Positions 12,654 through 58,948 of a stretch of DNA of 64,000 nt are shown in pieces. The DNA comes from an uncultured Isosphaeraceae bacterium (lineage in GTDB: Bacteria > Planctomycetota > Planctomycetia > Isosphaerales > Isosphaeraceae): contig CAZRGV010000002.1 of NCBI GenBank assembly GCA_964599655.1, positions 44,983-108,982 of the forward strand, read 5' to 3'. Each line of letters starts with the position of its first letter. Positions within the stretch are counted from its first letter, which is position 1. The position numbers were made by a program, and so were the translations under genes. Below the pieces are notes generated by a model. The model was not told the DNA's origin, did not search any database, and was given only the letters and a program-made list of their open reading frames with translations.

Positions 12654-12665
12654 GATCGGTGGTTC

Positions 12666-20413: not shown

Positions 20414-20477
20414 CGCAGTAGCTCCGAAGGCGTCTTATTCGAGCCGCAAACCGACGCCTGATCACTTATTGTTGGTT

Positions 20478-28200: not shown

Positions 28201-28930
28201 AGCCGCCGCCGAAATTGCCCCCGTTGGTGAAATGGCCGTTGCCGCCGCCGGAGACGGACTGGATGAGGAATCGGGAACCGGCCGTGCCTCGGACCAGGAA
28301 CTTGGCATAATCGGCGGCGGACCCGATGTAATTGTTGCTGATCTGCCAGGTCCAGCGGGTGGTCGTTGGACTGGCGGCCTGGGTGGCATCAAACAGGATT
28401 TTCCCGTTGCCGTTGCCCGTGACCGTGACGCCGTTGGCCTGAACCACGTTGCCACGCAGGGTCAACGTGACGCCGGGATTGATGGTCAGGTTGGCGTTGA
28501 GGATCAAGGCCGTCGCCCCAGCGTTCGACGAGCCAAGATCGGCATTGGTATCGAGCGTGACGGCATGCCCGACCGTGACCGTGTCCCCTGTTCTGGGCAC
28601 GGTTCCAGAGAGCCAGATGGTCGGATCCGACCAGTTTCCTGATTGTACTGTTTGTTGGTTAATCATAAAACGATTCTGTTTAATGTGAGGTTTTAAAGGT
28701 GTTTCCAAATGCGATCGTACAATTTGCGGAGCTTCGGACAGTGGATTCGATTGCTCCCCGGAACGGGCAACCGGCACCTCGGGACCTGGATGCCGACGGA
28801 CCAAGGAAAACATCAGTACAGCCGCCGTGACGATCAATCCAAATGGCAAGAGTCGTCCCCACACGGAACGCAACCGACGGCGAGCGGAATGGCCGGATCC
28901 AGGAGGCTGTGTGGGTCGGTGATTCATCAC
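22226..28930 (-). CDS. Giant (2234 aa) N-terminally anchored, repeat-rich surface protein: two parallel-beta-helix-like modules, six ~90-aa Ig-like modules, central domain carrying GGSGY repeats
   Basis: Single uninterrupted ORF. Signal-anchor RLLPFGLIVTAAVLMFSLV. Module starts are QSGNWSDPTIW (28613-28645) and KSGDWSDPTVW (24536-24568). Six repeats follow the pattern Y.LTGP..FTV.L..LSDGGAGGTF.P..L....ATFTYTP. T/S/G/N-rich composition typical of secreted beta-rich proteins. Confidence 0.85.
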   Translation of the reverse strand: MMNHRPTQPPGSGHSARRRLRSVWGRLLPFGLIVTAAVLMFSLVRRHPGPEVPVARSGEQSNPLSEAPQIVRSHLETPLKPHIKQNRFMINQQTVQSGNWSDPTIWLSGTVPRTGDTVTVGHAVTLDTNADLGSSNAGATALILNANLTINPGVTLTLRGNVVQANGVTVTGNGNGKILFDATQAASPTTTRWTWQISNNYIGSAADYAKFLVRGTAGSRFLIQSVSGGGNGHFTNGGNFGGGWVDAEYGDFLRIGDSSTLPFASNSENRDGVLRLDHCRLINCGQVSHANTTGTAIPVANGAATFQVNACSFLRSLAATELNATASAALTTGTWAVTNNDFDQAVTLQSAFTISGNTYRSAWTLNGASQSATAGPYPALSYAFSGPSTLVRGSASSNYMVALADGTTSAGDAITLSDGSAGGSFSPASLSLSTASPSATFTYTPAVTGPITLSAVDANGLWIETSSIHATATTPATTYNLTGPATLTALAGQPSENFTVALPAYTTVSGTLNVTLSDGGAGGTFTPGSVGLTSASPAATFTYTPASGASAGQSIPISVTNDGGLANPASVTLTIASPVTTYTLTGPTSGDVAAASGNFTVTLGSGAISGSLTFTPAASNGDGSFSPSSVTLTNSNRSATFTYSPTLYGSRTISTTNSGGLPNPSPVPFLGMVQIGKSDNWSYNGSPSPSLGGFDMLTFGYLADLKRDVTSDPVDPNSDIYIQRLAGTTIGLNFSASTANGGNTAYGMPYNVVRGDTPTLPLVLGAYGPESEPGPVPWPASGMVFEGIAGNLPTPNAAPTDGSDHHNFVFVRDEATGGVSDVWEYYQSYYPGDGQWYSSGGAKWNLKALAGASTNNPATARCVVTGGVVTSVTLLTGGSGYTEPPQVYIQGGSGKGAQVTATVSGGSVTSLTLVDGGSGYDTQSYVSFGGPRLDGATSGDAAGLPMVALCAHYDQVASGDIGHALRFTVDAYKTVDPATATATITGGVVTGLTLTHGGSGYLNPPAVTITGDGTGAAATATVDGSGHVNGLNLTSGGSGYTTATVSFSGLPLSRSKYIFPARHTAYSGSSTEGLPFGTRLRLTSAWYAANAANFTGQARPIVDAMRTYGLILADLGGTLRIDGTNDSRWVQSDLNQLTTIPAAAFEVLKIEPDITITGPSSIAAGQSGTYTIQYQPASDSHFGAYIYVYYDTVPTVDSANRVPIGTYSITDTNRTQTFTFTPPSAGTWYLGWFNTVSDHLMSPFAKVTAGSGAATTFSLTPPNPASGIVGQVSQPFTVAPNGSFTGTMTLSDGGAGGTFTPTSLTWNNSAASMAFSYTPASVGSITITVTDSSGTLSPSTQTASYTSNVLAVKDYTLTGPSTGTVGVASSNFTVTLGTGTLANTLRITPDSGGAGGTFTPAYLDLTNTTRSGAFSYTAASAGTVTISTTNNGNLTNPAALTYQAAGVSRQATTLKSGDWSDPTVWDTGIVPGAGDTATINHNLTITTNQTIGTSGAAGTFELTCATGTLTIKNGAVLTLRGDATFGQYNPAAVLYPLTIEAGSGIEFDPPSGQRYKINVATDSQLNINGTSASRAFIRTKAGAAGLNGYITGSYAMRSCAVSAAYCDFTRLGDSGTAAIEPILDSSRAVFRLDHCTFETCGPITVSPNDPGVTLSINQSIWKNSAAAYTVQFGATTTPTGTWAVTGCYFDKGLQAAGDCRGISFTGGNFITDGLIGVSGGYNPCVTMSDFFLYRKTDGSEHIWPGPSSNGYVFGDSYGGTGPEYNAHMTNIGIFGANYSDIIFDAMYSQRGKAFIVSGPTSGPLVVSSIRNCITLPNAAGGAFGTLAAGGGTDYLDLILEHNTVYTSFGNTTERDCCYLGETYFGHANQYESVKSNIAWSRTSNAGFLFSRSADSAVQDLVSAANLDYNCLFNQSGAARDLNGTNSMFTSGTPQTHGVVADPQFVDDSRNLATFATGYLGRTAGTAWVPSGQAYSVGDIVSHSNASVYGNRSINYRCIQAHTSGVGNDEPGTSAASFAYWELQSLYEIRNAVQTGLTINDASLGLSNSSYPSALVAWTKAGFAPRNTALQAAHDAGSPTTPAGAWIGAVQGQAVVAAVTSYDLGAPSPSSGRVGKPSSPFTVTLGSGTLTGSVRITPSVSNGSGSFSPAFLDLTDTTRSGAFTFTPSSLGTCTIACTNSQALLDPPNVTYTSSKNGPRRSLLPRRRGESRQRTAWPQRPSQPSSRPFQRKPRSR

Positions 28931-42882: not shown

Positions 42883-45800
42883 CTAACGGGAACGGACAAT
42901 CCGTACGGTGCCGTCGTGCCAGCAGGCCGACAGCGCCGAACCATCGGGTGAGAAGGCGAGGGCGTTGGCCTGGCAGGGACGGCCTTCCAGGGGCAGGAGC
43001 TCCTGACCGACGATCGGGTCCCAGAGGTGGAGCGTCCCCGACTTGCCGGCCGCGGCAAGGGTCCGGCCGTCGGGCGAGAAGGTCAGGCAGCGCAGCTCGT
43101 CGTACTCGCTGTGCAGCGGTGCGAGGAGACGCCTCCGGGCCAGGTCCCAGCGTTGGAGGACGCCGTCCTCATGTGCCCAGGCGAGCGTGTGTCCATCCGG
43201 CGCAAAGGCCACCGCCGAGATCTTCACATCCCCCTCCCAGGTCCACAAGGCTCGCCCCGTGTCCACGTCCCAGAGCCTCACGGTCGCATCGTTGCCGGCC
43301 GAGGCCAGGATGCGACCGTCGGGCGAGAACGCGAGCTGACGGATCGCGTCGGAATGGCCGGCTAAGATCCGGAGGCAACGTCGCGCCGCGACGTCCCACA
43401 GGCGGATCGTGCGATCGGAGCCGGCAGAGGCGAGCAGGCGGCCGTCCGGGCGGAAGGCGACGGTGCGGACCTTGTCCGTATGGCCGTCGAGCGCGGCGAG
43501 GAGTTCTCCGGTCGCGGCATCCCAGAGGCGGAGGTTGTGCTCCGGCAGCAGGCAGGCCGTAGCGAGGACGCGGCCCCCCGGCTGGAACGCGACCGCGCCG
43601 GTGGTCGCGTCGTGCGCCTTCCAACCACGCAGGAACCGACCCGTCGCGGCGTCCCAAAGCTTGAGCGTCTGGGGATCGTCGTCGTCGGCGCCCGAAGCGA
43701 GGAGGCGGCCGTCGCCCGAGAACGCGATGGCCCACGCCTCATCGGCGTGCCCGGCCGGCTGGGACTCGGGGGCGGGCTCGAAGTGCCAGAGGACGGCCCG
43801 TCCCCCGGAGAGAAACACGATCGAACCACCGTCGGGCAAGCCGAACAGGTGGCTGACAGGCTCCAGACGACCGGGGAAGGTCGCCCGAAGCGCGCCGCCG
43901 GCCCGCTCGTAGACGCGCAGGGGATGCGAGCCCGTGTGGTCGTTGCGGTAGCTCCAGGCAAGCCGCAGACCGCCTGACAGGAGGACGGAGTTGCCAAAGG
44001 AGTTCGACTCATCGCCCGGATCGACCTGGTTCGCCCACGACGTTCCTGTATCGAGATCATAAAGCCGCATCGTGCCCTCGAAGCCCTGGGCCAGGAGGGA
44101 GCGTCCGTCGGGGCTGAACTCGAACTCGGTGATCGACCAGCCGCTGGGCAGATCGCCGCGTTCGAGGAGCCGCCGGCCCGTCTCCACCTCCCAGACGTCC
44201 AACCTGAGAGGACCTCCCGGCTTGACCCTGGCGGTTGCGAGGAGCCGGCCGTCGGGAGAGAAACCGAGCCCGTGGCACCCCGGGTCCATGGGAGTCAGCC
44301 GGCAAAGCGGCCGGCCGGAGAGGGGCTCCTCGACCACCACGTCGCAGCCCACGTCTTCGAAGCCGGCGACACGCCGACCATCGGCCGACACGGAGAAGTT
44401 CTCGCCGCTCCGCCAGCGTCGGATCAGTCGGGGGTGGAGGGCCCCCGGCCCTCCTTCCAGCTTCCACAGACCAATGTCCAGTCGTCCGTCAGGGGGCAGG
44501 GACTGCACCCACAGGTAATCGCCCGAGGGATCGAATCGAAGGTTCCAGACGTCCCGCGTCTCGAAGCCATCGACGCGGGCCAGGGTCCGGCCGGACTCGA
44601 CCTCCCAGACCCGCACTTCGCCCACGTCGGCACGGGATGCGACGAATTCGTGGCTCGCACCGGAGGCGATCCGACGGCCGTCCGTTGAGAAGGCCAGAGC
44701 GCTCACCGACAAGCGTGGCCCGCGGAATCGGCGGCGAATCGCCCCCGTGGCCGTGTCGCGGATGCGAATGGTCCCGTCCCGGTCGCCGGTCGCGACCAGA
44801 CGTCCATCGGCCGAGAGGGCGAGCGACCGGACCAGCTCATCGCGCCCGGAAAGGACCTCCACCGCGCGCCGCGACTCGCGCCAGAGGTGGTGCCAGGCGA
44901 ACCCGCGAAGGTCATCCTCGTCGGGGCCGGGTTGGCAGTCGAGGAGGATCTCTTGCGCCTTCTCGAAGCGCCGAGAAACGAGGGCCTCACCCGCCTGCCG
45001 GAGACGGAAGGCGTAGAGATGGTGGTCGGCAATGAGCCGTCGCTGTTCGGCCAGGTCGCGCTGGGACTCCAGCTCGCGCGAGAGTCCCCCGGCCCGGTCG
45101 TGCTCCTTCCGCAGTCGCTCGTTGTGGGCGCGGAGCCAGTTGTTGGACCAGAGCAACCCCCCACCGAGCGACAGCACGGCCAGGACCGCGAACAGGGCCA
45201 CCGAGGCCACCAGCGCGCGGTTGCGGCGCGCCCAGCGTCCGAGCCGCTCCAGCCAGCCCGGCGGACGCGCCGTGATCGATCGCGCGTCGAGAAACCGACC
45301 CAGGTCGTCCGCGAGGTCGCGGGCCGTCGCATAACGGTCGGACGGCTCCTTGGCCAGGGTCTTGTGGATGATCGTCTCGAGGTCGCGGGGCACGGCCGGG
45401 TTGACCTTCCGGAGCGGGATCGGCTGGTCCTGGGCGATCTTGCGGAGGATCTCGCTTCGGTCGCCGCCATCGAAGACGGGCCGGAGCGTCAGCAGCTCGT
45501 AGAGGGTCGCGCCCAGCGAGTAGATGTCGGTCCGTCCGTCGATCAGGCCGCGACGGGCCATCGTCTGCTCGGGGCTCATGTAGCGAAGGGTGCCGACGAC
45601 GTCGCCGGTGAGGGTCAGGTGGCTGTCCCCCTGGACCAGAGCCAGGCCGAAGTCGGTGACCCAGAGGTGGCCGGCCACGTCGAGCATCAGGTTGGCGGGC
45701 TTGATGTCGCGGTGGAGCACGCCCCGGCTATGAGCGTGATCGAGGGCCTCGGCGGCCCGCCGTCCCTGCTCGGCCACGGCGCGGATGTAGCGTCGCTCGC

Positions 45801-46509
45801 GGTGCGACGCCCCAAGCGAGGTCCCGGTCGCGGCCGTCGGCGGAGGCGAAGGCTCGCCGGCCGTCTTGCGAATCCAGGTCAGCGTCAGTCCCGTCGCCAG
45901 CGCGGAGACCACGGGCGAGCCGAGGTCAAAGCTGACTTCATCGCGGCCTCGAAGCTCGCGGAGGACCTTGGCCAGAGTGTAGCCGTCGATGAACTGCATG
46001 GCGTAGAAGGGCACACCCCGCTCCGATCCGACGGCATGAACTGGGACAATGTGCGCGTGGTGCAGGCACGCCGCGGCCCGCGCCTCCAGAAGGAACCGCT
46101 GGTAGTGCCGGGGGTCGAGCGCGCCGGCCAGGGGCAGGATCTTCAACGCGACCCGGCGTCCGAGCGAGATCTGCTCGGCCTCGTACACGATCCCCATGCC
46201 GCCCCGACCCACCTCGCGGAGCAAGCGGAAATCCCCGAGCGTGCCCAGGCCGGCCGCCGGAGCCGGCTGGTCCGGCGCCCCGATCGGGTCGGGGCCGTGG
46301 CGGACCGCCTCTCCGAACGAGGCCATGCGCCGGATCGTGGGCAGGAGCCGGCGGAGTTCCTCCGCGCCTTCCGGGTGGGCCTCAGCGAGCGCGTCCAGGT
46401 CCACCGGCTCGCCCCCTTCGAGCCGCTCCGCCAGCTCGGCGACCCAGGCCGCGAGGGCGTCGCCCTCGTCGTTGACGTCAGCAGGGCCCTCGCCGCGTAC
46501 GTCACTCAT
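42883..46509 (-). CDS. Ser/Thr protein kinase with one TM helix and a large C-terminal WD40 repeat region (11 or more blades)
   Basis: Kinase motifs GRGGMGIVYEA, HRDIKPANLML, DFGLA and GTLRYMSPEQ. TM segment LVASVALFAVLAVLSLGGGLLW. Repeated ..H.D.V..LAFSPDGR.LA(S/T)...D.T(I/V)RLWD.. units. Confidence 0.9.
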   Translation of the reverse strand: MSDVRGEGPADVNDEGDALAAWVAELAERLEGGEPVDLDALAEAHPEGAEELRRLLPTIRRMASFGEAVRHGPDPIGAPDQPAPAAGLGTLGDFRLLREVGRGGMGIVYEAEQISLGRRVALKILPLAGALDPRHYQRFLLEARAAACLHHAHIVPVHAVGSERGVPFYAMQFIDGYTLAKVLRELRGRDEVSFDLGSPVVSALATGLTLTWIRKTAGEPSPPPTAATGTSLGASHRERRYIRAVAEQGRRAAEALDHAHSRGVLHRDIKPANLMLDVAGHLWVTDFGLALVQGDSHLTLTGDVVGTLRYMSPEQTMARRGLIDGRTDIYSLGATLYELLTLRPVFDGGDRSEILRKIAQDQPIPLRKVNPAVPRDLETIIHKTLAKEPSDRYATARDLADDLGRFLDARSITARPPGWLERLGRWARRNRALVASVALFAVLAVLSLGGGLLWSNNWLRAHNERLRKEHDRAGGLSRELESQRDLAEQRRLIADHHLYAFRLRQAGEALVSRRFEKAQEILLDCQPGPDEDDLRGFAWHHLWRESRRAVEVLSGRDELVRSLALSADGRLVATGDRDGTIRIRDTATGAIRRRFRGPRLSVSALAFSTDGRRIASGASHEFVASRADVGEVRVWEVESGRTLARVDGFETRDVWNLRFDPSGDYLWVQSLPPDGRLDIGLWKLEGGPGALHPRLIRRWRSGENFSVSADGRRVAGFEDVGCDVVVEEPLSGRPLCRLTPMDPGCHGLGFSPDGRLLATARVKPGGPLRLDVWEVETGRRLLERGDLPSGWSITEFEFSPDGRSLLAQGFEGTMRLYDLDTGTSWANQVDPGDESNSFGNSVLLSGGLRLAWSYRNDHTGSHPLRVYERAGGALRATFPGRLEPVSHLFGLPDGGSIVFLSGGRAVLWHFEPAPESQPAGHADEAWAIAFSGDGRLLASGADDDDPQTLKLWDAATGRFLRGWKAHDATTGAVAFQPGGRVLATACLLPEHNLRLWDAATGELLAALDGHTDKVRTVAFRPDGRLLASAGSDRTIRLWDVAARRCLRILAGHSDAIRQLAFSPDGRILASAGNDATVRLWDVDTGRALWTWEGDVKISAVAFAPDGHTLAWAHEDGVLQRWDLARRRLLAPLHSEYDELRCLTFSPDGRTLAAAGKSGTLHLWDPIVGQELLPLEGRPCQANALAFSPDGSALSACWHDGTVRIVRSR

Positions 46510-47138
46510 GCCTCGGAACCCTCATTCGACGCGTCGAGGAGAAGGTTGATCCGCTGCAAGGCGCGGAAGTGCCGGACGCGCGCCGCGCTCTCGCTGATCG
46601 CGAGGATGACGCCGATCTCGGCGAACGCGAGCTGATCCAGGTAGCGCATCACCAGGATCTCGCGGTCCTGGTCGGACAGCAGGCCAAGCGCCCGCCACAT
46701 CGCCTGACGCTCTTCTTCCCGGATCAGGTGCTTGCTCGGGCTGGTCCCACTGGCCGTTAGCCGTTCCACGAGCCGGAACGCCGTGGGATCGGCCTGGGGC
46801 GGGCCGCTGGCCTGCTCCCGGCCTGCCTCTCGTCGCAACGTGCGCAGGTGGAACCGATGGGCCTGCGCCAGTCGCTCGGAGGCGAGACGATGCAGCCAGG
46901 GGTAGAACGGCAGGGCCGGCGCCTGGACGTAGTCGGCGAACCTCCGGGCGGCGTCGATCAGCGTCTCCTGAACCACGTCCGAGGCATCGAGCCGCGACGC
47001 GAGCCGTCCGTCGAGCCGGACGGTGATCATCCGCCGGAGTCGGTCGCGATGGCGCTCCAGCAGCCAGTGGAGGGCCTGCTCGTCGCCCTCGGCCGCTCGC
47101 CGCAGCCGGACCTCGGTCTCGGGATCGTCACCCAGCAT
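46506..47138 (-). CDS. ECF-type sigma-70 family RNA polymerase sigma factor
   Basis: Region 2 SDVVQETLIDAARRF and region 4 REILVMRYLDQLAFAEIGVILAISESAARVRHFRALQRI. Its stop overlaps the kinase start (ATGA at 46506-46509). Confidence 0.85.
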   Translation of the reverse strand: MLGDDPETEVRLRRAAEGDEQALHWLLERHRDRLRRMITVRLDGRLASRLDASDVVQETLIDAARRFADYVQAPALPFYPWLHRLASERLAQAHRFHLRTLRREAGREQASGPPQADPTAFRLVERLTASGTSPSKHLIREEERQAMWRALGLLSDQDREILVMRYLDQLAFAEIGVILAISESAARVRHFRALQRINLLLDASNEGSEA

Positions 47139-47467
47139 CGTCGCGGACCCTCCCGGAGAGATCCTGCATCCCGGCCCTTGATGTTACAGGCCGCCGCCCG
47201 TTTCTTCACGGGGCGTACCTTCGGATTTCGAAACTGGCATCCATCGTTGTCAAATTTGGAAATGAGATGTAACGCCGGGGATTGCCTCGCAGGATTCCCC
47301 CTGGCGACAGGCGATCCACGAGTCTCGCGACGGAGCGGGTACGACCCGCGGGATACCACCAACGCAGCCGGCTCCTCCACTCGCTCGCTCGCCAACAAAC
47401 GTTGTCACGAACTCGATCCGACGACTTCCGGCGGGGGTCGGCTCCTGGGTTCGGTTCCTACTTCCCC

Positions 47468-49453
47468 ATGAGGATTGCTTTCATGTTCCGCCACATCGCT
47501 CAGAGGATCGGTTCTGATCTCCGTCACTACATCCACCTTGGCCGTCGAAGGACCCGCCGGCTCGGCCCCCGCCGTCATGCCCGAATCGTCGGAGCCATCG
47601 TCCCGCTGGAAGAGAGGACCTTGCTCTCAGCGATGCAGTTCTCCGCGCCCGTCGATGTCCTGGGCGTGGAGAGCGGCCTGGCCCCGTCGTCCGCGGTCGT
47701 GACGGGGGACTTCAACAACGACGCCAGGACCGACCTCGTCGTGACGTCGGGGATCGTGGGGAAGATCGAAGGCGGGCCCTCGTCGATCCTGTCGAACGAA
47801 GGCGGCGGCGTGTTCTCCTCCCCCGCGGGTGTGCCCGTGCCGGCGGACCGATCCACGTTCGGGCTCGCGGCTGCCGACCTCGACTCGGACGGTGACACCG
47901 ACCTCGCGATCAGCTGGCGAAGTACGCTCATCAAAGGTGTCAGCGGTGTCTCCGTCCTCCTGAACGATGGCACGGGGGGCTTCTCCGCCCCCCTCGATGT
48001 GTTCAGCGACGCCAACAACTTGTTCCTGAACCACGTGGTGGCGGCGGACTTCGACGGCGACTCCCGGATCGACCTGGCGGTGGAGTCACTACCGTCCTCT
48101 GGCGGGGCGGTCTCGTTGCTGGTGATGTCGAACCGGGGCGGCGGCGCATTCTCGCCCCCCGTGGAACTGCCCACGACGAGCGACGGACTCGCCGGGCTGG
48201 CGGCGGCCGACCTGAACGGCGACGGCCACACCGACCTCGCCTTCGCGGGATGGTTCTTGGACGGCTCCAGCGGCATCGCCACGCTTCTCAACGACGGTAC
48301 CGGCGGCTTCTCCGCCCCCGTCCGCGTGTTCGACGCCCCGGCCGCCCTCAACCTCTACGGGCTGGCGGCGGCCGACCTGAACGGCGACGGCCGGTCGGAC
48401 CTCGCCCTGGAGACGGGCATGGGCGGGAAGTTCCCCTCCACGACCGTCTCGGTCCTGGTGAACCAGGGCGGCGGCGCCTTCTCCGCCCCCTCGGATGTGA
48501 TTTCGCTGTCGGACAGGGAACCTGGCGGGCTCGCCGCAGCGGATCTCGACGGCGACGGCCTGGCCGACCTCGCCTTCGGCTGGCGCGATATCCCGCTCCG
48601 CGCGGGCGGCGTGTCGGTGGCGTACCAGGTCGGGCCCGGCACCACCCCGACCGGGCAGGACGTCAGCGTCCAGCCGGTGGACCCCGTCACCGGGACGAGC
48701 CCGGTGGCCATCACCTTCTCCACCGTCACCGCGGGCGGCACGACCACCGTGACCACCAGCAGCCAGGGCCCGCCCCCGCCCGAAGGCTTCAAGCTCAGCA
48801 GCAGCCCGCCCACCTACTACGACCTGGCCACCACGGCGACCTTCTCGGGTACGGCCACGGTGGCCATCAGCTACGCCGGGCTCAACGTCCACAACGAGTC
48901 GGGCCTGCGGCTGTTCCACTACGAGAACGGAGTCTGGGTGGACCGGACGTCGTCCGTGGACACGGCCAACGACATCATCTACGCCACCGTGACCTCGTTC
49001 TCGCCCTTCGCCCTCTTCGAGGCGATCCGCCAGGTACAAATCGACGTGAAGCCGGACGCGGTCAACCTCGCCAGCAACGGCAAGATCGCCGTGACGATCT
49101 TCACCACGTCGGACTTCGACGCCGCCCAGGTGGACGTGAGCACGGTCGTCTTCGCCGGCGCCCATGCGGTCTCCAGCAGCCTGCAGGACGTGGACGGTGA
49201 CGGCGACCTCGACCGGGTGCTGCTGTTCAACACCCAGGACACCGACCTGAAGGCGATCTACCAGGAACTGCTGGCCGACGACGCCGACGCCGACGGCGTC
49301 CTCGACTCCACCCGCCAGGTGGCCCAGGTGCGCCTAACGGGCGAAACGCTCGCCGACGAGTCCTTCGAGGGCTACGACAGCGTGACCCTGTTCCTCTCCG
49401 GCAAGTCGCTGCGCGACCTGCTCGACCAGATGCACCGAGACGGTCTGCTCTGA
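47468..49453 (+). CDS. FG-GAP/VCBS-repeat (integrin-alpha-like beta-propeller) secreted protein
   Basis: Repeated A(A/G)D(L/F)(D/N)(S/G)DG.(T/S/I)DLA Ca-binding loops, at least 6 of them, and a C-terminal DVDGDGDLD segment. Start set at ATG 47468. N-terminal Arg-rich stretch plus LEERTLLS. Confidence 0.8.
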   Translation: MRIAFMFRHIAQRIGSDLRHYIHLGRRRTRRLGPRRHARIVGAIVPLEERTLLSAMQFSAPVDVLGVESGLAPSSAVVTGDFNNDARTDLVVTSGIVGKIEGGPSSILSNEGGGVFSSPAGVPVPADRSTFGLAAADLDSDGDTDLAISWRSTLIKGVSGVSVLLNDGTGGFSAPLDVFSDANNLFLNHVVAADFDGDSRIDLAVESLPSSGGAVSLLVMSNRGGGAFSPPVELPTTSDGLAGLAAADLNGDGHTDLAFAGWFLDGSSGIATLLNDGTGGFSAPVRVFDAPAALNLYGLAAADLNGDGRSDLALETGMGGKFPSTTVSVLVNQGGGAFSAPSDVISLSDREPGGLAAADLDGDGLADLAFGWRDIPLRAGGVSVAYQVGPGTTPTGQDVSVQPVDPVTGTSPVAITFSTVTAGGTTTVTTSSQGPPPPEGFKLSSSPPTYYDLATTATFSGTATVAISYAGLNVHNESGLRLFHYENGVWVDRTSSVDTANDIIYATVTSFSPFALFEAIRQVQIDVKPDAVNLASNGKIAVTIFTTSDFDAAQVDVSTVVFAGAHAVSSSLQDVDGDGDLDRVLLFNTQDTDLKAIYQELLADDADADGVLDSTRQVAQVRLTGETLADESFEGYDSVTLFLSGKSLRDLLDQMHRDGLL

Positions 49454-50149: not shown

Positions 50150-51772
50150 ATGCCATTCCGCCACCTTCTCCGACGACGGCACCGGAAACCGGGCCTCGGG
50201 AGCCGCGTTCGCGACGAACATCAGCGGCGATCCTCCGTCGCCCGACGATCCGTCGCGCTCGGCCCCGAGGCCCTCGAAGACCGCAGGCTCCTCAGCACCT
50301 TGACGGTGCGGAACGGCCTCGACAGCGGGCCCGGTTCGCTCCGGCAAGCCGTTCTCGATGCCAATGGCGCCCTCGGCACGGACACCATCGTCTTATCTAT
50401 GACTGTTCATAAGATCATATTTACCAGCGGCGAGCTGACGATCACCGACGACCTGAGCATCCGGGGTCCGGGCGCGAACCGGCTGACGATCAGCGGCAGC
50501 GACGCCAGCCGCGTCCTCGACATCCAGGCGGGCGCCGACGTGACCGTCTCCGGCCTGACGATCACCGAAGGGCGGGCCGACGGCAACTCCCCGGCTTACC
50601 CCAGCACGGGCGGCGGCATCCTGAACCAGGGCCGCCTGGCGCTCGAGGACGTCGCGGTGGTCGGGAACCGGGCGGTCGGCGACCCCGCCGCGATCGTCGC
50701 GGTCAATGCCGTCTTCAACATCGCCGGGGGCGCCGTCGGCGGCGGCCTCGCCAACTTCGGCACGCTGACCGTCACCGGCTCCACCTTCGCCGACAACCAG
50801 GCGCGAGGCGCCGACGATACCGACGCCTCGTCCCTGCCGTTCTTCGCGTTCCCCGGCAACGCCCTCGGCGGCAGCCTCGCCAACTTCGGCGTGGCGAGCA
50901 TCGACAACAGTCAATTCGTCGGCAATCGCGCCCTGGCCGGCAGCCGTGGAATCGGCGCCTTCGCGGCCATCGGCGGCGGCGGAGCCATCTTGAACGACGC
51001 CACCCTGACCGTCGACGCCAGCGCGTTCCGAGAAAACGTGGCCGTCGGCGGCGACGACAGCGTTAGCCCGTCGCACAACGGGCACGCCCTCGGCGGCGCC
51101 ATCATGAGCGGCTCCCTGACGGCCCTCCTCGGCGCCGCCGGGGCGGACCTGACCGTCAGCCGGAGCGACTTCCGCCACAACCAGGCCCTCGGCGGCAACG
51201 ATAACCGGGTCACGGACCCCGTGGTTCCCCCGTCCGACGCCCCCGACAACGGCTACGGCGGTGGCATCCTGGTTTACCAGGGATCGGCCGCGATCCAGAC
51301 GAGCACACTGACGCAGAACAGAGCTGTTGGCGGCGCGGGGGGTGGCGTGAACGGCAAGGGCAGCTTCGGCGTCGGCGGCGGTATCTTCTTCTACAACTTC
51401 GTGGGTGGAGTGACGGCCACGGTCGAGGCGAGCACGATCACCAACAACTCCGCCCTCGGCGGCGCGGGGCGCGACGGCATCGCGGGCGGCGACGGGCTGG
51501 GCGGCGGCATCGCGATCGGCGGCCTCGGCTCCCCCTTCTCGGGGCCGGGTTCGGTCGCCATCAGCGACACCACCATCGCCTGGAATCTCGCGCGGGGCGG
51601 AGACGGTGGCCAGCGGGCCGACGGCGGAGACGGACTGGGCGGAGGGCTGTTCAACGACGGCAGCTCGACGCTGACCCTCACGGTCACGACGATCATCCGG
51701 AACCGTGCCCGGGGAGGTCACGGCCGGGCCGGCGGCCGGGCCGGTCAGGGCCTCGGCGACAATGTCTTTTGA
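50150..51772 (+). CDS. Right-handed parallel beta-helix repeat protein with CSLREA-like N-terminal motif
   Basis: GSLRQAVLDAN..DTIV..SGELTITDDLSIRGPGANRLTISG, followed by many G-rich GG.(I/L).N.G.L repeats. N-terminal Arg-rich stretch plus LEDRRLLS. Confidence 0.7.
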   Translation: MPFRHLLRRRHRKPGLGSRVRDEHQRRSSVARRSVALGPEALEDRRLLSTLTVRNGLDSGPGSLRQAVLDANGALGTDTIVLSMTVHKIIFTSGELTITDDLSIRGPGANRLTISGSDASRVLDIQAGADVTVSGLTITEGRADGNSPAYPSTGGGILNQGRLALEDVAVVGNRAVGDPAAIVAVNAVFNIAGGAVGGGLANFGTLTVTGSTFADNQARGADDTDASSLPFFAFPGNALGGSLANFGVASIDNSQFVGNRALAGSRGIGAFAAIGGGGAILNDATLTVDASAFRENVAVGGDDSVSPSHNGHALGGAIMSGSLTALLGAAGADLTVSRSDFRHNQALGGNDNRVTDPVVPPSDAPDNGYGGGILVYQGSAAIQTSTLTQNRAVGGAGGGVNGKGSFGVGGGIFFYNFVGGVTATVEASTITNNSALGGAGRDGIAGGDGLGGGIAIGGLGSPFSGPGSVAISDTTIAWNLARGGDGGQRADGGDGLGGGLFNDGSSTLTLTVTTIIRNRARGGHGRAGGRAGQGLGDNVF

Positions 51773-51910
51773 GCGAAAGGCCCGGTGGCCCTGTCCGAAC
51801 CTCGGTGTCGTTGAGGTAGTCCCGGAACGGACCCGCGGATCATCGGTTCCGTTCCGTCTCGAGTCCGAATCACCTTCCGTCCGCCCTCATTCCCAACACT
51901 CGGAGGTCCC

Positions 51911-52435
51911 ATGAAGAGTCGTACAATCTCCACACTTATCCTCTGCGTCATCGCCGCAGCCCTGGCACCGGGCCGGGCGCACGCTCAGGTCGAGCCCTTC
52001 AAGGTCAGCGGCAGCGGGATCGTGGATTTCATCCCGCTGGCCGAGGGCCTCTCGGCACCGCATGACGCCGACGGCACAGCCACCCACCTCGGTCGCTACC
52101 ACGCCGAAGGGCTGGTCCGGCTCGACCACTTCACCGGCCCGACGACCGCAGAATTCTCCAGCGCCGTGCCGGTGGTCTTCACCGCCCCGAACGGGGACGA
52201 ACTGCATTTCGATTACGCCGGAACCGTCGAGCTTATCCCGCTGGCCGGGGGCCTATCCATGACGGTCTGGGGCGCCGAGTTCACGCCGGCCACCGGCAGC
52301 ACCGGGCGGTTCGCGAAGGTCGTCGGCGGCAGCTTCATCATGACGGCCGTCACGGCCCCGTTCGCGCTGGGCGACACCGACATCGCCTACGCGTGGGAGG
52401 GGAGCGGGACGCTGGAGTTCCGCCGGGGGAACTGA
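51911..52435 (+). CDS. Small secreted beta-rich protein, paralog-like of 49603-50079, hypothetical
   Basis: Signal peptide MKSRTISTLILCVIAAALAPGRAHA, with THLGRY.., APNGDEL and GSTGRFAKVVGG motifs. GGAGG lies 5 nt upstream of the ATG. Confidence 0.6.
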   Translation: MKSRTISTLILCVIAAALAPGRAHAQVEPFKVSGSGIVDFIPLAEGLSAPHDADGTATHLGRYHAEGLVRLDHFTGPTTAEFSSAVPVVFTAPNGDELHFDYAGTVELIPLAGGLSMTVWGAEFTPATGSTGRFAKVVGGSFIMTAVTAPFALGDTDIAYAWEGSGTLEFRRGN

Positions 52436-53431: not shown

Positions 53432-55651
53432 ATGTCGACCTACGTCCAGGCCGATCGGCCCTTGAAGGTGACGACCCCCCTGGGGCCGGACGTCCTGTTG
53501 CTCCGGGGGCTCTCGGGTTACGAGGCCATCTCGCAACTCTTCCGCTTCCAGCTCGACCTGATGGCCGAAAATGGCACCTCGGTCCCCTTCGACAAGCTGC
53601 TCGGCCAGAAGATCTCTACGCGACTCCTGCTGCCCGACCAGAAGTCCCGCTACTTCAACGGCATCTGCAGCAGAATCAGCGAGGGACACCGCGACGCAAC
53701 CTTCACCTACTACACCATGGAGGTCGTCCCTCAGTTCTGGTTCCTGACCCGCAAGGCCCAGAGCCGGATCTTCCAGCAGAAGAGCGTGCCCGACATCCTC
53801 AAGGAGGTCCTCACCGGGCTCGACGTCGCCTACGAGCTGCAAGGAACCTTCCTACCCCGCGACTACTGCGTCCAATATCGCGAAACCGACTTCAACTTCG
53901 CCTGCCGGCTCATGGAAGAAGAAGGGATTTTCTTCTTCTTCAAGCACACCAGCGGCGGCCACCAGATGGTCGTCGCCAACTCCCCGCAGAGTCACCCCGA
54001 TCTTCCCGAAAAGAGCACGATCGAGTTCGAGCAGTCCGAGGTCGGCGAACGGCAGGCCGATCGTATCATCGCCTGGGAAAAAGTTCAGGAACTCCGGTCG
54101 GGCAAGTATACCCTCTGGGACCACTGCTTCGAGCTGCCCCACAAGCACCTCGAAGCCGACAAGCTGATCCAGGACAGCGTCTCGGTGGGCACCGTCAGCC
54201 ACAAGCTGAAGGTCGGCAACAACGACAAGCTGGAACTCTACGACTACCCCGGCGAGTACGCCCAGCGCTTCGACGGCATCAACCCCAGCGGCGGCGACCG
54301 GTCTTCTGATATTGAACATATCTTTGAAGATAACAAGCGAACTGTCGAGATTCGGATGCAGGAAGAGGCCGCCGCCGGCCTCCAGATCCGGGGCGCCAGC
54401 CACTGCCGATACCTCGTCAGTGGGCACAAGTTCACCCTCGACCGCCACTTCGACGCCGATGGTTCCTACGTCGTCACCGGCGTCCAGCACAGCGCCAGGC
54501 TGGGCAACGACTACCGATCCGGCTCCGAGGACGAGGAGTTCTTCTACCAGAACAGCTTCACCTGCATCCCGCTCGCCCTGCCGTTCCGCCCCAGACGGGT
54601 CACCCCCAAGCCGATCGTGCAAGGAACCCAGACGGCCGTCGTCGTCGGACCGGCCGGCGAGGAAATCTTCCCGGACAAGTACAGCCGCGTGAAGGTCCAG
54701 TTTCACTGGGATCGCCAGGGGCAGAATGACACCAACAGCTCGTGCTGGGTCCGGGTCGGCACCCCCTGGGCCGGCAAGAACTGGGGTATGATCCACATCC
54801 CTCGAATCGGCCAGGAGGTCATCGTCGCCTTCCAGGAAGGCGACCCCGATCAGCCGATCATCGTCGGCAGCGTCTACAACGCCGACATGATGCCCCCCTA
54901 CACGCTGCCCGACAACAAGACCCAGAGCGGCATCAAGAGCCGAAGCTCCTTGAAGGGGACGACCGATAACTTCAACGAGCTCCGGTTCGAAGATAAGAAA
55001 GACTCCGAGCAGATTTACTTCCACGCCGAGAAAAACTTCGATCGCGTCGTCGAGAACAACGACACCCTCAAGGTCGGCTTCGAGAAGAAGGACAAGGGCG
55101 ACCGCACGATCGAGATCTTCAACAACGAGACCCAGACCATCGGCGCCGGCAAGACCAACGCCGCCGACGGCAGCCATAGCCTCACCGTCTTCAACAACCA
55201 GACGATCAAGGTCGGCGACGCTTCGGCCTCGGGCAGCAGCCAGACGACCACCATCTACAAGGATCGCACCGCGACGATCCAGACCGGCAACGAGACGCTG
55301 ACCGTCCAGCAGGGCAACCGCACCGTCAACGTCGACACCGGCAACGATACTCACAAGATCAAGATGGGCAATCGTGACGTCCAGATTGATATGGGCAACG
55401 ATACCCTGACAATCAAGATGGGCAACCAGACCACCAAGCTCAACCTGGGCAAGAGCACCACCGAGGCCATGCAGGCGATCGAGCTGAAGGTGGGCCAGAG
55501 CTCCATCAAAATCGACCAGATGGGGGTGACGATCCAGGGGATGATGGTCAAGGTTCAGGGTCAGGTCCAGACCGAGATCAAGGGCCTGATCACACAAGTC
55601 AATGGCGATGCCATGCTCAAAATGGGCGGCGGCATCACGATGATCGGCTGA
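53432..55651 (+). CDS. vgrG: Type VI secretion spike protein VgrG (TssI)
   Basis: LSQLFRFQLDLMAENG, FHWDRQGQNDTNSSCWVRVGTPWAGKNWGMIHIPRIGQEVIVAFQEGDPDQPIIVGSVYN, and C-terminal GN.T beta-helix repeats. Start reset to ATG 53432. Confidence 0.9.
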   Translation: MSTYVQADRPLKVTTPLGPDVLLLRGLSGYEAISQLFRFQLDLMAENGTSVPFDKLLGQKISTRLLLPDQKSRYFNGICSRISEGHRDATFTYYTMEVVPQFWFLTRKAQSRIFQQKSVPDILKEVLTGLDVAYELQGTFLPRDYCVQYRETDFNFACRLMEEEGIFFFFKHTSGGHQMVVANSPQSHPDLPEKSTIEFEQSEVGERQADRIIAWEKVQELRSGKYTLWDHCFELPHKHLEADKLIQDSVSVGTVSHKLKVGNNDKLELYDYPGEYAQRFDGINPSGGDRSSDIEHIFEDNKRTVEIRMQEEAAAGLQIRGASHCRYLVSGHKFTLDRHFDADGSYVVTGVQHSARLGNDYRSGSEDEEFFYQNSFTCIPLALPFRPRRVTPKPIVQGTQTAVVVGPAGEEIFPDKYSRVKVQFHWDRQGQNDTNSSCWVRVGTPWAGKNWGMIHIPRIGQEVIVAFQEGDPDQPIIVGSVYNADMMPPYTLPDNKTQSGIKSRSSLKGTTDNFNELRFEDKKDSEQIYFHAEKNFDRVVENNDTLKVGFEKKDKGDRTIEIFNNETQTIGAGKTNAADGSHSLTVFNNQTIKVGDASASGSSQTTTIYKDRTATIQTGNETLTVQQGNRTVNVDTGNDTHKIKMGNRDVQIDMGNDTLTIKMGNQTTKLNLGKSTTEAMQAIELKVGQSSIKIDQMGVTIQGMMVKVQGQVQTEIKGLITQVNGDAMLKMGGGITMIG

Positions 55652-55670: not shown

Positions 55671-56345
55671 ATGGCCGAATCGAAGCAAGATTCCATCACA
55701 ATAGCAACCGCCGCCGAGGTCTGTCGGGACGTCCTCCTCGGCGAGGAGGCGGCCTCGCTCCTAGACGGCCAGCAGACCCCTCGCCAGTTTCTCGGCCTGC
55801 TGATCGAGCGGGAACTCTACACCGACGCGGCGAGGTTTCTGGCTCGCGCCTTGCCGAAGCGGGAGGCGGTGTGGTGGGCCTGCCGTTGTGCCCGGATGGT
55901 CTCCTCCGCCGCGCCGGGGCCAGGTTCCTCGCCGGTCGCCGAGGCCCTCGACGCCGCCGAACGATGGGTAGCCGACCCGAGCGAGGAGAATCGACGGGCG
56001 TCCGCCGAAGCGGCCGGGCGCGCCGGCGTCGAGACCCCCGCCGGTTGCGCCGCCATGGCCGCCTTCTGGAGCGGCGGCAGCCTCGCCCCGCCCGACCTGC
56101 CCGAGGTGCCGCCCGCCGAGTTCCTCACGGCCCGAGGGGTCGCCGGCGCCGTGCTCCTGGCCGGCGTCATCACCGAGCCCCACAAGGCCCCCGAACGCTA
56201 TCAACAGTATCTCAAACTGGGCCTGGCCGTCGCCGACGGCCGGGAACGCTGGAACGAAGCGGGCGCCAAGCCCGAACCAGCCGCGAAACCTTCGCCTTCG
56301 ACGCGAAGGACCTCCAGGGGCCGGTTCCTCGATACCTGGGAGTAA
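55671..56345 (+). CDS. Hypothetical all-helical protein between vgrG and PAAR (candidate T6SS adaptor/chaperone)
   Basis: 224 aa, no TM helix or signal peptide, Ala/Glu/Arg-rich, with motifs KREAVWWACRCARM and AMAAFWSGGS. 19 nt after vgrG and 15 nt before PAAR. Family not confidently recognised. Confidence 0.6.
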   Translation: MAESKQDSITIATAAEVCRDVLLGEEAASLLDGQQTPRQFLGLLIERELYTDAARFLARALPKREAVWWACRCARMVSSAAPGPGSSPVAEALDAAERWVADPSEENRRASAEAAGRAGVETPAGCAAMAAFWSGGSLAPPDLPEVPPAEFLTARGVAGAVLLAGVITEPHKAPERYQQYLKLGLAVADGRERWNEAGAKPEPAAKPSPSTRRTSRGRFLDTWE

Positions 56346-56360: not shown

Positions 56361-56660
56361 ATGCCACAGCCCGCGGCTCGTGTCGGCGACATGCACGTCT
56401 GCCCGATGGTCACGCCCGGGGTCCCGCCGATCCCCCACGTCGGCGGCCCAATCCTGCCGCCAGGAGCCATTCTCGTCCTGATCGGCGGCCTGCCCGCGGC
56501 CAGGGTCGGCGACATGGCCACCTGCGTCGGCCCGCCCGACGTGATCGCCCTCGGCAGCTTCAAGGTCCTGATCGGCGGCCAGCCCGCCGCTCGCATGGGC
56601 GACTTGACGGCGCACGGCGGCTCGATCGTCATGGGTTGCCCGACGGTGCTCATCAACTGA
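56361..56660 (+). CDS. PAAR-domain protein (T6SS spike tip)
   Basis: Three PAAR-type repeats AARVGDMHVCP, AARVGDMATCV and AARMGDLTAHGG in a 99-aa protein. Confidence 0.9.
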   Translation: MPQPAARVGDMHVCPMVTPGVPPIPHVGGPILPPGAILVLIGGLPAARVGDMATCVGPPDVIALGSFKVLIGGQPAARMGDLTAHGGSIVMGCPTVLIN

Positions 56661-56738
56661 ACCGGCCCGGCCGTCGGCCGTCGAGCCCCTCGGACCCGCT
56701 CAGTCCTTTTTCGAATCCTGACCAGACGGTCGGGGAGC

Positions 56739-57887
56739 GTGTCGATCATGTCGGAACCAAAACAGTGTCGAAGCGTCCTGGCCTCCGCCCACGAGACCGT
56801 CGTCCTCGGGTTCGAGCTGGTCGGGGCCACCGCCCAGAACCTCCCCGACCTGATCTGGCAGGCGCTCGGATCCTCGCAGGTGCAGAAGGCCATCCGCTCG
56901 GCCCTCGATGAGGAAGCCCAGCGCCTGCTTCGAGAGCATCCCGAGGCCCGGTTCGGCGAGACCGTTCCCCAGGACGCCTCGCAGGCCCAGGCCTTTGCGA
57001 AGCGGCTGGGCGAACGCGCCGTCGATGCCGTCGAATCGAAGGTTCTCTCGGAGGTCGAGAGCAGTCCCGAGGCGAAGAAGCTCCGCAAGGCGGCCGAGCA
57101 GTTGCTTCACGATTTCGATTGCAGCGCCATGGGCGTGTGGGTCAACCAGAACCGCACGTGGCTCTACATCGTCGGCGGCGTTCTGGCCGTGGCCGGCGGC
57201 GCAGCCATGTACATCGCTCGATGGGGTGATCCGGCCGGTCAGCTCGTCCAGGGCAAGGCGATCCAGTTCAACCTTGGCAAGCTCAGCCTCAGCGGCCAGC
57301 TCAGCCGGTTCGAGCCGTCGTCACGGACCGTCGGCGCCGAGATCACCCTGTCGACCGACTGGACTCCCGCCCCAACCGGCTCACAACGAGGCCAGGCCCG
57401 CTTGACGATCGCCGGCCTGGCCAGCGGCTCGAACAGGAAGGCCTCCGCCGACGGTCAAGCGGTCATCCCGCTCGGCCACCATGTCAGCGGCGTGCTCTCG
57501 GCCAGGCTCGATTTGCGGGACGACCTGGAACGGGGCCCGACGGGAACCTCAACACCTCGACTGCTCACTCTCTCGCCCAGTCTCGGCCTTCGGATGTCGG
57601 ACCAGGGGCTGTCGGTCAACATTTTGACTGGTTTTCATTACGATATCATCGCGCCGGGAACAAGCCCGGCCTTCAACCCGTTCGCGGGCCTGTCGCTGGG
57701 TCTCGACCGCCGCCTGGGACCGGTCCGGACCCAGTTCTCCGCCGACGTGCAACTCAGCACCAACGGACGCCCGGGCGCCCCTGGCTTCGAACGTTCTCGC
57801 CTCCCAGGCCCGATCGCCACCGATCCGCCGGCCAACCATCCCGGAGCGGCGTTCCAGATGGGGGCCACGCTCAAGCTCCTGTTCTAG
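56739..57887 (+). CDS. Hypothetical 382-aa protein: helical N-domain, one TM helix, beta-rich C-domain ending ..LKLLF (candidate T6SS cargo or accessory)
   Basis: Last gene of the vgrG operon. Hydrophobic segment TWLYIVGGVLAVAGGAAMYIA, alternating-pattern strands in the C-terminal 220 aa, and an aromatic C-terminus. No family recognised. Confidence 0.6.
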   Translation: MSIMSEPKQCRSVLASAHETVVLGFELVGATAQNLPDLIWQALGSSQVQKAIRSALDEEAQRLLREHPEARFGETVPQDASQAQAFAKRLGERAVDAVESKVLSEVESSPEAKKLRKAAEQLLHDFDCSAMGVWVNQNRTWLYIVGGVLAVAGGAAMYIARWGDPAGQLVQGKAIQFNLGKLSLSGQLSRFEPSSRTVGAEITLSTDWTPAPTGSQRGQARLTIAGLASGSNRKASADGQAVIPLGHHVSGVLSARLDLRDDLERGPTGTSTPRLLTLSPSLGLRMSDQGLSVNILTGFHYDIIAPGTSPAFNPFAGLSLGLDRRLGPVRTQFSADVQLSTNGRPGAPGFERSRLPGPIATDPPANHPGAAFQMGATLKLLF

Positions 57888-57916: not shown

Positions 57917-58948
57917 TTAAACATTGCAAGTAAACACAGCTTGATCCGCATCACTCGTGAATGGTCTACTCTTGAGCCAGGCGTGACGTCCCAGCCTCGG
58001 CCCCGGTCCGGCGGGACCGGCCGAGAGCTGGCACGCGGGAACGTCCTCGGCCTTGAGAATCAGTTGCACGTCGAAGACGAACTCGCCGTCGACGTAAAGG
58101 CGGGTCAACTGGGCCAGGGCGCGGAAGTGGCGTCCATCGGGGGAGAGGGCCAGGAACCGCTCGAAGTCGAGGGGACCGATCCGGAGGCGGAACTTGCTCT
58201 GTTCGTCCCAGACCCGGCTCCCCAGGACCAGGCTGGTTCCCAGGCCGTTGTTGACGCCCGAGGCCCCCAGCGACGAGCGGTCGGCCGGTTCCAGGTGCAG
58301 CCAGTGCCCCTCGAACTGGCGGACCTCGACGGGCAGGCCAAAATGGTCCGCCAGCAACCGCTGGAGCGAGACGGCGGGACGGTGTCGCTTCGAGAACAGG
58401 CCCGCGTAGAAGAGCAGGGCCCCGTCGGGAAACTCGTGACGGTTCCGCAAAGACTCCAGGCCCAGGCCGATCAGGTCGAACAGCGCTCGAGAGGGACGGT
58501 CCTCGAGGCCCTCCTCGAACGCCAGGAAGGGACGATACTTGGACCAGGCCCGATAGAACAGCGAGATCAGGCGATGATGAAACAGGTCGAGGAAGCTGGC
58601 CAGGGTCCGATCGCCGGCGCGCGCTCGATCGATCACGAGCTCGGTATAACAGTACGGCAGAACCGCCAACGGTCCGGTCAGGCCCAGGAACGCGACGGTC
58701 ATCTCGGGCGGACTCTCGGGGTCGTCGAGCCGCTTCAAGCGGTGGATCTCGCTGGCGGGGAACGCCAGCGTCTGGTGCACCGAAAACCGCACCGCTTCGC
58801 GCTGGGGCGGCCCGTTCCGGCCAACCGGCTCGCGGTCGGGGGCCAGACGTTCCAGCAGCCGAACCGCCTGGAAGAAGTCGAATCCTGGAGCGTTCTGGAA
58901 GAGCAGCCGCTCTAGAGGAGCGTCCGGTCGCCCGCGCGCGGTGGCCAT
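57917..58948 (-). CDS. tssG: Type VI secretion baseplate protein TssG
   Basis: N-terminal FDFFQAVRLLERL signature and 343-aa length. Overlaps the tssF 3' end. Confidence 0.85.
   Translation of the reverse strand: MATARGRPDAPLERLLFQNAPGFDFFQAVRLLERLAPDREPVGRNGPPQREAVRFSVHQTLAFPASEIHRLKRLDDPESPPEMTVAFLGLTGPLAVLPYCYTELVIDRARAGDRTLASFLDLFHHRLISLFYRAWSKYRPFLAFEEGLEDRPSRALFDLIGLGLESLRNRHEFPDGALLFYAGLFSKRHRPAVSLQRLLADHFGLPVEVRQFEGHWLHLEPADRSSLGASGVNNGLGTSLVLGSRVWDEQSKFRLRIGPLDFERFLALSPDGRHFRALAQLTRLYVDGEFVFDVQLILKAEDVPACQLSAGPAGPGPRLGRHAWLKSRPFTSDADQAVFTCNV

Follow-up and report, generated by a model that had tools for sequence, protein, structure and literature searches.

Which role does a protein of no named family play at the end of a type VI secretion system (T6SS) spike operon? 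Beyond the Proteobacteria, T6SS clusters have been little characterised, and the crossing of producer and target outer membranes by the spike is unclear. The gene considered here, designated X, closes a plus-strand operon of vgrG, orf224 and PAAR in an uncultured Isosphaeraceae bacterium of the Planctomycetota. It lies in a stretch of 64,000 nucleotides (nt) on contig CAZRGV010000002.1 (assembly GCA_964599655.1, positions 44,983 to 108,982), hereafter called the window. A sequence-only reading had offered two options for the product, a membrane-inserting or pore-forming cargo of a new type or a lineage-specific structural or anchoring part of the apparatus. The structural option is now somewhat favoured over the pore-forming cargo, based on the wide distribution of the family, its placement at clpV, its baseplate-like divergence and a stand-alone clade in Acidobacteriota. 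X is tentatively assigned as a resident, non-enzymatic envelope accessory, co-inherited with the T6SS and belonging to the 'Tag' class rather than to the toxins (probability roughly 0.45).

Family and distribution

Among 1.84 billion cluster representatives (clusters at 50 % identity) scanned exhaustively with HMMER, relatives of X were retrieved in 159 clusters at E ≤ 1e-3 and in 115 clusters at E ≤ 1e-10. Given 159 homologous clusters, X is not a chance open reading frame (ORF). Family members have a length of 290-395 amino acids (aa), and the source annotation of every relative is 'hypothetical protein'. A word-indexed search with X alone and with a 76-sequence profile yielded, among the matches listed, X itself and one relative. 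The family is present in Fuerstiella marisgermanici (WP_077024580.1), in metagenome-assembled genomes (MAGs) of Phycisphaerae and Planctomycetota, in one Pseudomonadota MAG, in a hydrothermal-vent metagenome and in nine Acidobacteriota MAGs (Bryobacterales, Solibacteraceae, Acidobacteriaceae). The suggestion that X is lineage-specific is refuted by this distribution.

Profile searches against Pfam and NCBIfam assigned X to no family, as the sequence-only reading had expected. The lone Pfam signal was the N-domain of the SipB translocator (T3SSipB), which touched residues 39-123 with an E-value of 0.0095 and 16.7 bits, below the cut-off of 31 bits. It occurred in 1 of 133 family members. None of the 133 aligned relatives belongs to a Pfam family; a single one touched OMP_b-brl (PF13505) at 1.6e-4. 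A profile search of PDB sequences with the X family gave nothing significant (best E 0.03-0.1). In the literature on DUF6931, planctomycete T6SS and beta-barrel T6SS effectors, no description of the family was found. X is a new, undescribed family inside a known system and merits a Pfam entry.

Placement in T6SS clusters

The genomic context of X was evaluated in a small, non-random sample of contigs long enough to show neighbours. A metagenome scan contributed at least three related loci. One genome scan used a motif favouring the Acidobacteriota clade, and its nine loci are a biased sample. X is linked to T6SS genes in 10 of 19 informative loci and in 10 of the 12 located outside Acidobacteriota, which bears out the proposed T6SS association. 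In the window the order is vgrG-DUF6931-PAAR-X. The closest homologue (41 % identity) faces the 3′ end of clpV in convergent orientation. On contig P0076, an X of 29 % identity follows VgrG, an FHA/DUF6931 fusion, a 33-aa ORF and PAAR. A fourth locus comprises VgrG and, further on, PAAR, Rhs, two SUKH immunity genes, a pentapeptide protein, DUF2169, X, a 96-aa ORF and an OmpA-domain protein. Two divergent Planctomycetota contigs (L020 and L024) share the order tssB-tssC-hcp-tagJ-tssE-tssF-tssG-clpV-X-vgrG, with X beginning 6-11 nt after clpV. Locus L022 holds X, VgrG, PAAR and FHA/DUF4123. Another one presents clpV, VgrG, a 269-aa ORF, X and a second VgrG, with PAAR farther along. In the ninth locus, an OMP_b-brl gene, a PpkA-like kinase, a PP2C phosphatase, an FHA gene and tssM are located less than 9 kb from X. 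The Pseudomonadota MAG (L030) has the order tssB-C-C'-E-F-G-clpV-X, facing a convergent operon that starts with PAAR and DUF4123 and contains SMI1.

The conserved placement of X within T6SS clusters thus recurs among divergent organisms from at least two phyla. The slot behind PAAR is not the rule for X. The neighbour is clpV in four other loci, where X follows directly in three (with vgrG next in two) and is convergent in one; in a further locus X stands directly before vgrG.

Nine loci lack any T6SS gene inside the flanks examined (up to 10 kb): Fuerstiella marisgermanici, L007/P0022 and seven Acidobacteriota loci. The Acidobacteriota copies have the same architecture and are vertically conserved. 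They stand alone among housekeeping genes (M24 peptidase, MacB, UvrA, DnaX and others), which are unrelated and not conserved from locus to locus.

A conserved small immunity-like partner was found neither upstream nor downstream of X in the ten T6SS-linked loci. Cross-locus BLAST among the neighbours of X revealed no small neighbour common to loci and, hence, no candidate immunity gene. The gene downstream of X varies: tssG, vgrG, or ORFs of 96, 282 and 860 aa. The early remark that no immunity-like gene follows in the window extends to the linked loci.

Sequence identities were compared between the window and three linked loci. Against L020, X is 38 % identical, compared with TssC 52 %, TssF 38 %, TssG 35 %, TssE 32 % and VgrG 40 %. 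The values against L024 are 30 % for X, 53 % for TssC, 39 % for TssF, 38 % for TssG, 35 % for TssE and 34 % for VgrG. Against L030, where VgrG was not found in the locus, they are 32.5 % for X, 56 % for TssC, 32 % for TssF, 30 % for TssG and 33 % for TssE. By these identities X diverges like a baseplate protein retained with the cluster, unlike an exchangeable cargo. The parallel with TssE, TssF and TssG fits co-inheritance with the machine and not cargo swapping.

Domain architecture and fold

A single-sequence AlphaFold model was discarded (predicted local distance difference test, pLDDT, 37). The AlphaFold2 model from the 133-sequence alignment reached a mean pLDDT of 83 and divides X into three modules (Table 1). 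The N-domain comprises helices at residues 10-40, 43-63, 77-104 and 107-125, with pLDDT values of 80-94 across most of the domain. A majority of family members contain exactly two cysteines. The first is located 13 residues ahead of the conserved L20 column, the second 4 or 8 residues ahead of an invariant glycine, two positions that are one helical turn apart. Both cysteines occur in 79 sequences, neither in 47 and a single one in 7. About 20 joint state changes were counted on a neighbour-joining tree. The joint gain and loss, together with the expected location of residues 7 and 125 at the same end of an up-down four-helix bundle, suggests a C7-C125 disulfide staple as the simplest reading of the pair. 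Such a bond would imply an oxidising compartment. The pair is present in 9 of 10 T6SS-linked copies versus 2 of 9 unlinked ones, a correlation confounded by phylogeny.

Conservation within the family is highest in the second module. The motif S-P-x-G-V-W-V-D-x-N-K precedes a Gly/Ala-rich hydrophobic helix, which ends in M-Y-x-T-R/K. G129 is invariant in 133 of 133 sequences. The helix contains glycines G143, G149 and G150; other conserved residues are M-Y155, R/K158 and G160-D161. Conservation of at least 90 % was found for Y155, G160, G177, F188 and P190. Lysine and arginine residues flanking the helix amount to 2.06 upstream versus 1.32 downstream (78 sequences versus 16), which weakly favours an N-in, C-out topology.

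The third module follows the helix after only about 12 residues in the model. It is predicted to fold into 10-12 long antiparallel strands (residues 171-378) with a conserved F188-x-P190-S-x-R turn; the loop at residues 345-364 is of low confidence. At the family level each strand alternates a hydrophobic and a polar face. The C-terminus of X reads L-K-L-L-F. The last residue is phenylalanine in 71 of 133 members, and an aromatic residue (F, W or Y) is found within the last three positions in 101 of 133. Hydrophobic residues occupy positions -3, -5, -7 and -9 (columns 371, 373, 375 and 377). By sequence, this pattern is that of the beta-signal recognised in substrates of the beta-barrel assembly machinery (BAM). 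The C-domain is basic; its net charge averages +5.5.

Foldseek searches of the PDB with the model returned outer-membrane beta-barrels only: ScrY (7.6e-4), BamA, BtuB, PgaA, PorB and NanC. Designed 10-strand transmembrane barrels were matched as well, and a viral library likewise gave porin-like proteins. The TM-scores were modest, 0.3-0.48 (NanC 0.48, target-normalised), and long antiparallel meanders in general show similarity of this kind. Alternatively, the C-domain may form a beta-taco, or a lipid-binding barrel with its hydrophobic face inward. A beta-sheet-rich C-domain had been anticipated from the letters and is present in the model, and the barrel guess drawn from the C-terminal phenylalanine agrees with a predicted fold resembling outer-membrane barrels. 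The missing signal peptide, the helical N-domain, the one hydrophobic helix, the beta-rich C-domain and the aromatic C-terminus, all described first for X alone, hold family-wide.

No signal peptide or lipobox was found in any family member. The N-termini are polar (MSEPKQC, MGQC, MADP), and the first hydrophobic stretch contains aspartate or glutamate and belongs to helix 1. A lipoprotein was rejected due to the missing hydrophobic region ahead of the N-terminal cysteine. A cleaved internal signal peptide was rejected as well, because Tyr155 of the conserved M-Y-x-T-R/K would occupy position -3. Many members start with 'MG' followed by the conserved cysteine (MGQC, MGKC, MGNSC), superficially like eukaryotic N-myristoylation or palmitoylation signals. 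Such a modification was rejected, for most members lack the initial MG. Column counts revealed no conserved set of catalytic-type residues (Cys, His, Ser, Asp, Glu), and an enzymatic role was dismissed on this ground.

Comparison with known systems

Outer-membrane beta-barrels, the substrates of BAM (NanC, OmpA/OmpX-type proteins, porins; PF13505), resemble the modelled C-domain in the meander of long antiparallel strands. The alternation of hydrophobic and polar residues and the C-terminal beta-signal pattern are shared, too. Unlike classical outer-membrane proteins, X has no signal peptide and no Pfam match, its C-domain is basic, and about 135 residues of helical domain plus the hydrophobic helix precede the putative barrel. 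Autotransporters of type Va possess a translocator unit with a linker helix inside a 12-strand barrel. The order in X appears similar, with an N-terminal 'passenger', one helix and a predicted barrel of about 10-12 strands ending in phenylalanine. In contrast to autotransporters, X lacks a signal peptide and a match to Pfam Autotransporter, and instead of an amphipathic helix it has a strongly hydrophobic one rich in Gly/Ala. Foldseek listed an autotransporter only as EspP substrate in BamA complexes, where the matched chain was BamA. The absence of a signal peptide and of a family match speaks against both a classical outer-membrane protein and an autotransporter.

Several T6SS membrane-complex and accessory proteins have one transmembrane helix: TssL/DotU, TagL, TagN/TagP and AsaA/AsaB of Acinetobacter. 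Like these, X is encoded inside T6SS clusters, co-inherited with the core and non-enzymatic. A helical N-part, a single hydrophobic helix and a C-terminal part, extracytoplasmic in the accessories, are common to both. In contrast, the C-domain of X is porin-like and not an OmpA-like peptidoglycan-binding domain, and its N-domain carries the cysteine pair. Models of DotU, IcmF-related proteins, T6SS lipoprotein, the OmpA-like extension and Tss/Tag proteins in Pfam and NCBIfam gave no match for X at E ≤ 1. The DotU, IcmF, T6SS lipoprotein and OmpA-like models gave none in 133 relatives at E ≤ 0.01. Lacking a profile match, X is not TssJ, TssL, TssM or TagL.

The type III translocators SipB and IpaB offer an analogy. 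A helical or coiled N-region is followed by a hydrophobic membrane-inserting segment, and, as with X, the gene is encoded with the machine and comes without an immunity gene. SipB contains no beta-barrel and belongs to a different secretion system, so the likeness is an analogy only; the sub-threshold T3SSipB match argues that X is not a SipB-type translocator. By analogy, X would be most like a T6SS accessory that spans the membrane once and bears an unusual porin-like ectodomain, or like a secreted companion of the spike that inserts into membranes. Either would be new within the T6SS. Neither a confident match to a non-T6SS family or a core membrane-complex protein, nor a location of homologues mostly away from T6SS loci, nor a model devoid of a beta-rich C-domain, each named beforehand as evidence against a new T6SS component, was found in full.

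Proposed role of X

The assignment to resident accessories is favoured by the conserved location of X behind clpV, by its divergence in step with core genes and by the lack of an immunity gene. It builds on the observed architecture, on the absence of a signal peptide and of catalytic-type residues and on the T6SS linkage; topology, partners and an anchoring or gating role are proposed as follows. The conserved Gly/Ala-rich helix, which contains no cleavable signal, would act as signal-anchor in the inner membrane of the firing cell. The N-domain with its four helices, together with the invariant motif next to the membrane, would occupy the membrane face on which baseplate and VgrG-PAAR spike dock. 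The beta domain, amphipathic and porin-like, would project to the periplasmic or outer-membrane side and anchor or gate the site at which the spike crosses the envelope. Its C-terminal, beta-signal-like strand is possibly docked onto an outer-membrane partner. Conservation centred on the membrane helix is expected for an intramembrane protein-protein contact. The weak positive-inside signal points in the same direction. The stand-alone copies in Acidobacteriota suggest that synthesis and insertion of family members do not require a spike module.

Several points weigh against this assignment. In the model, the linker of about 12 residues is too short for an inner-membrane anchor and an outer-membrane barrel across a normal periplasm. 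A barrel like those of outer-membrane proteins, equipped with a beta-signal, would be unexpected on a domain tethered to the inner membrane. The probable disulfide, suggested by the covariation of the cysteines, and the oxidising compartment that it would require conflict with a cytoplasmic N-domain. Finally, X is also present in auxiliary-looking vgrG islands beside adaptor-type genes (DUF6931, DUF2169), one of which holds FHA-DUF4123; cargo usually sits in such islands. A predicted barrel with a beta-signal and a probable disulfide-stapled head, both without a Sec signal, pose a puzzle of biogenesis. X is a candidate for a missing envelope component or for a passenger of a new, membrane-inserting class. 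In either case, a family of about 160 clusters at 50 % identity, none of them named, would be added to the T6SS parts list.

Alternative explanations

In the main rival reading, X would leave the cell on the VgrG-PAAR spike as a companion that is not toxic and inserts into membranes, similar to a type III translocator. This alternative is unlikely overall, yet it accounts for a number of features. An adaptor (DUF6931, elsewhere DUF2169 or DUF4123) would keep X soluble, the disulfide would form outside the cytoplasm, and helix and barrel would insert into the target membrane or the producer's own outer membrane and aid delivery. No member has a signal peptide, yet the cysteines co-vary and the modelled barrel with its terminal phenylalanine resembles that of an outer-membrane protein. 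X travels with vgrG, PAAR and adaptor genes, also in apparent auxiliary islands, and it is the sole non-structural ORF in the vgrG operon of the window. The basic C-domain, the sub-threshold SipB signal and a linker that appears unable to bridge two membranes are consistent with export, and translocators are expected to be conserved with the machine and to lack an immunity gene. The prevalence of the cysteine pair among T6SS-linked copies fits as well, but here phylogeny confounds. It is hard to explain how a domain of the outer-membrane type stays soluble and loads on the spike. Cargo genes are not typically found upstream of vgrG in tight coupling to clpV, and in Acidobacteriota the relatives stand alone amid housekeeping genes and are vertically conserved. 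To our knowledge, no T6SS cargo of this kind has been described.

A bolder form of export is improbable. X would be the first porin-like beta-barrel exported by a T6SS, a spike-carried translocator or 'landing pad', stapled by a disulfide and inserted through its beta-signal into the outer membrane of the target or of the producer, possibly by hijacking BAM. If true, such a landing pad would be a new delivery principle; we know of none like it in any contractile injection system.

It is quite doubtful that X is a classical pore-forming effector with antibacterial action, brought in by VgrG-PAAR to permeabilise the target envelope. Such an effector would explain the location behind PAAR in the window, the adaptor genes nearby in several loci and the membrane-active features, i.e. 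the hydrophobic helix, the amphipathic beta domain and the basic C-domain. Against a toxin stand the ten T6SS-linked loci without a conserved immunity-like neighbour and the core-gene-like divergence of a gene that is not swapped. Stand-alone copies persist amid housekeeping genes without a partner, and conservation peaks in the helix region and not in the putative pore domain. No effector marker or toxin domain among those modelled by Pfam and NCBIfam was detected in X or its relatives.

The chances are just as slim that X is a general envelope protein unrelated to the T6SS, adjacent by genomic accident or through a shared regulatory neighbourhood. The nine unlinked loci agree with such a coincidence, though their genomes may encode a T6SS elsewhere. 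The arrangements clpV-X, X-vgrG and PAAR-X recur across two phyla at only 30-40 % identity of X, with a spacing to clpV of just a few nucleotides in two loci. A self-protection or immunity protein against a membrane-targeting T6SS effector would match a membrane protein in vgrG islands and orphan copies resembling orphan immunity genes, but is very improbable: the window contains no adjacent cognate effector (VgrG with 739 aa and PAAR are without toxin domains), the neighbours differ by locus, and 300-390 aa with three conserved modules are atypical in size and build.

Operon structure and start codon

The ORF of X (56739..57887, plus strand) has 382 aa when counted from a GTG. The true start is probably the ATG at 56748, yielding 379 aa: the motif GGGGAG at 56732-56737 is located 10 nt ahead of this ATG and 1 nt ahead of the GTG, the sole database copy of X has 379 aa, and the closest homologue is aligned starting at MSDEPKQC. 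The ORF reported initially does exist, with the shorter start being likelier than its GTG. The intergenic distances are 19 nt (vgrG stop 55651 to orf224 start 55671), 15 nt (orf224 stop 56345 to PAAR start 56361) and 78 nt (PAAR stop 56660 to the GTG of X); 29 nt separate the stop of X from the convergent tssG stop at 57917. These four gaps agree with those first described.

Table 1. Location of X, its modules and the adjacent T6SS genes in the window
Feature	Position	Strand	Basis
vgrG (TssI spike), first gene of the operon	53432..55651	+	TIGR03361, 1.7e-173
orf224, DUF6931 protein	55671..56345	+	PF22011, 1.1e-51
PAAR tip protein, 99 aa, without toxin extension	56361..56660	+	PF05488, 3.4e-25
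X, 379 aa from ATG (382 aa with GTG 56739)	56748..57887	+	ORF listing, Shine-Dalgarno motif, homologues
X residues 1-125, predicted four-helix N-domain with co-varying C7 and C125	56748..57122	+	AlphaFold2
X residues 126-158, most conserved part of the family	57123..57221	+	Column counts; AlphaFold2 helix 136-157
X residues 171-379, predicted beta domain	57258..57884	+	AlphaFold2 strands, pLDDT about 90
tssG, convergent with X; first of tssG-tssF-tssE-hcp-tssC (to 63606)	57917..58948	-	PF06996, 2e-110

VgrG consists of the domains Phage_GPD, Phage_base_V and Gp5_trimer_C (Pfam/NCBIfam). The PAAR protein of the window is 69-76 % identical to those of related loci. The product of orf224 is a candidate spike adaptor or chaperone. 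FHA is fused to DUF6931 in the vgrG island of P0076, and the equivalent slot in L022 (5853-6776) contains an FHA-DUF4123 fusion. Both fusions point to DUF6931 as a possible spike adaptor of the Tap/TEC-like kind, and in these lineages the recruitment of adaptors may depend on phospho-threonine. By sequence, the PDB contains no relative of DUF6931, and the literature yielded a single incidental mention. A terminator-like hairpin inside X (57611-57632) was discarded as chance level, with 3 hairpins found versus 3.4 expected.

Further observations

The minus-strand core genes beyond tssG encode TssF (7e-234), TssE (GPW_gp25), Hcp and TssC (VipB). This core operon (tssC-hcp-tssE-tssF-tssG) lacks a tagJ separating hcp from tssE and a clpV following tssG. 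The related loci L020 and L024 include both genes, in an order that resembles the H1-T6SS of Pseudomonas aeruginosa. The genes clpV and tssA, tssJ, tssK, tssL and tssM of the Isosphaeraceae genome must lie outside the window. L030 harbors two tandem TssC (VipB) genes at 599-3670, which are 56 % and 33 % identical to the TssC of the window. An unusually long VgrG of about 1177 aa with C-terminal extensions is encoded in L024 (11198-15516) and L028 (3189-7681). It is followed by a conserved protein of 258-269 aa without Pfam family (29 % identical between the loci), located directly upstream of X in L028.

Two ORFs without Pfam family, 540 aa and 174 aa, occupy 50150-52435 just upstream of vgrG. 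The 174-aa product has a signal-peptide-like N-terminus (MKSRTISTLILCVIAAALAPGRAHA). Homologues of both were searched for in related loci and not found there. An FG-GAP repeat protein is encoded at 47282-49453. A Ser/Thr kinase of 1208 aa that carries WD40 repeats is encoded beside an ECF-type sigma factor (42883-47138), about 6 kb upstream of vgrG. A large polysaccharide locus extends over 5290-21443 on the minus strand. It comprises genes for glycosyltransferases, a C-methyltransferase, a GDP-mannose dehydratase-like protein, a Wzt-type ABC ATPase, an O-antigen ligase-like protein, a Wzz/tyrosine-kinase-like protein and the exosortase EpsH. An ORF of 2234 aa (22226-28930) comes after it.

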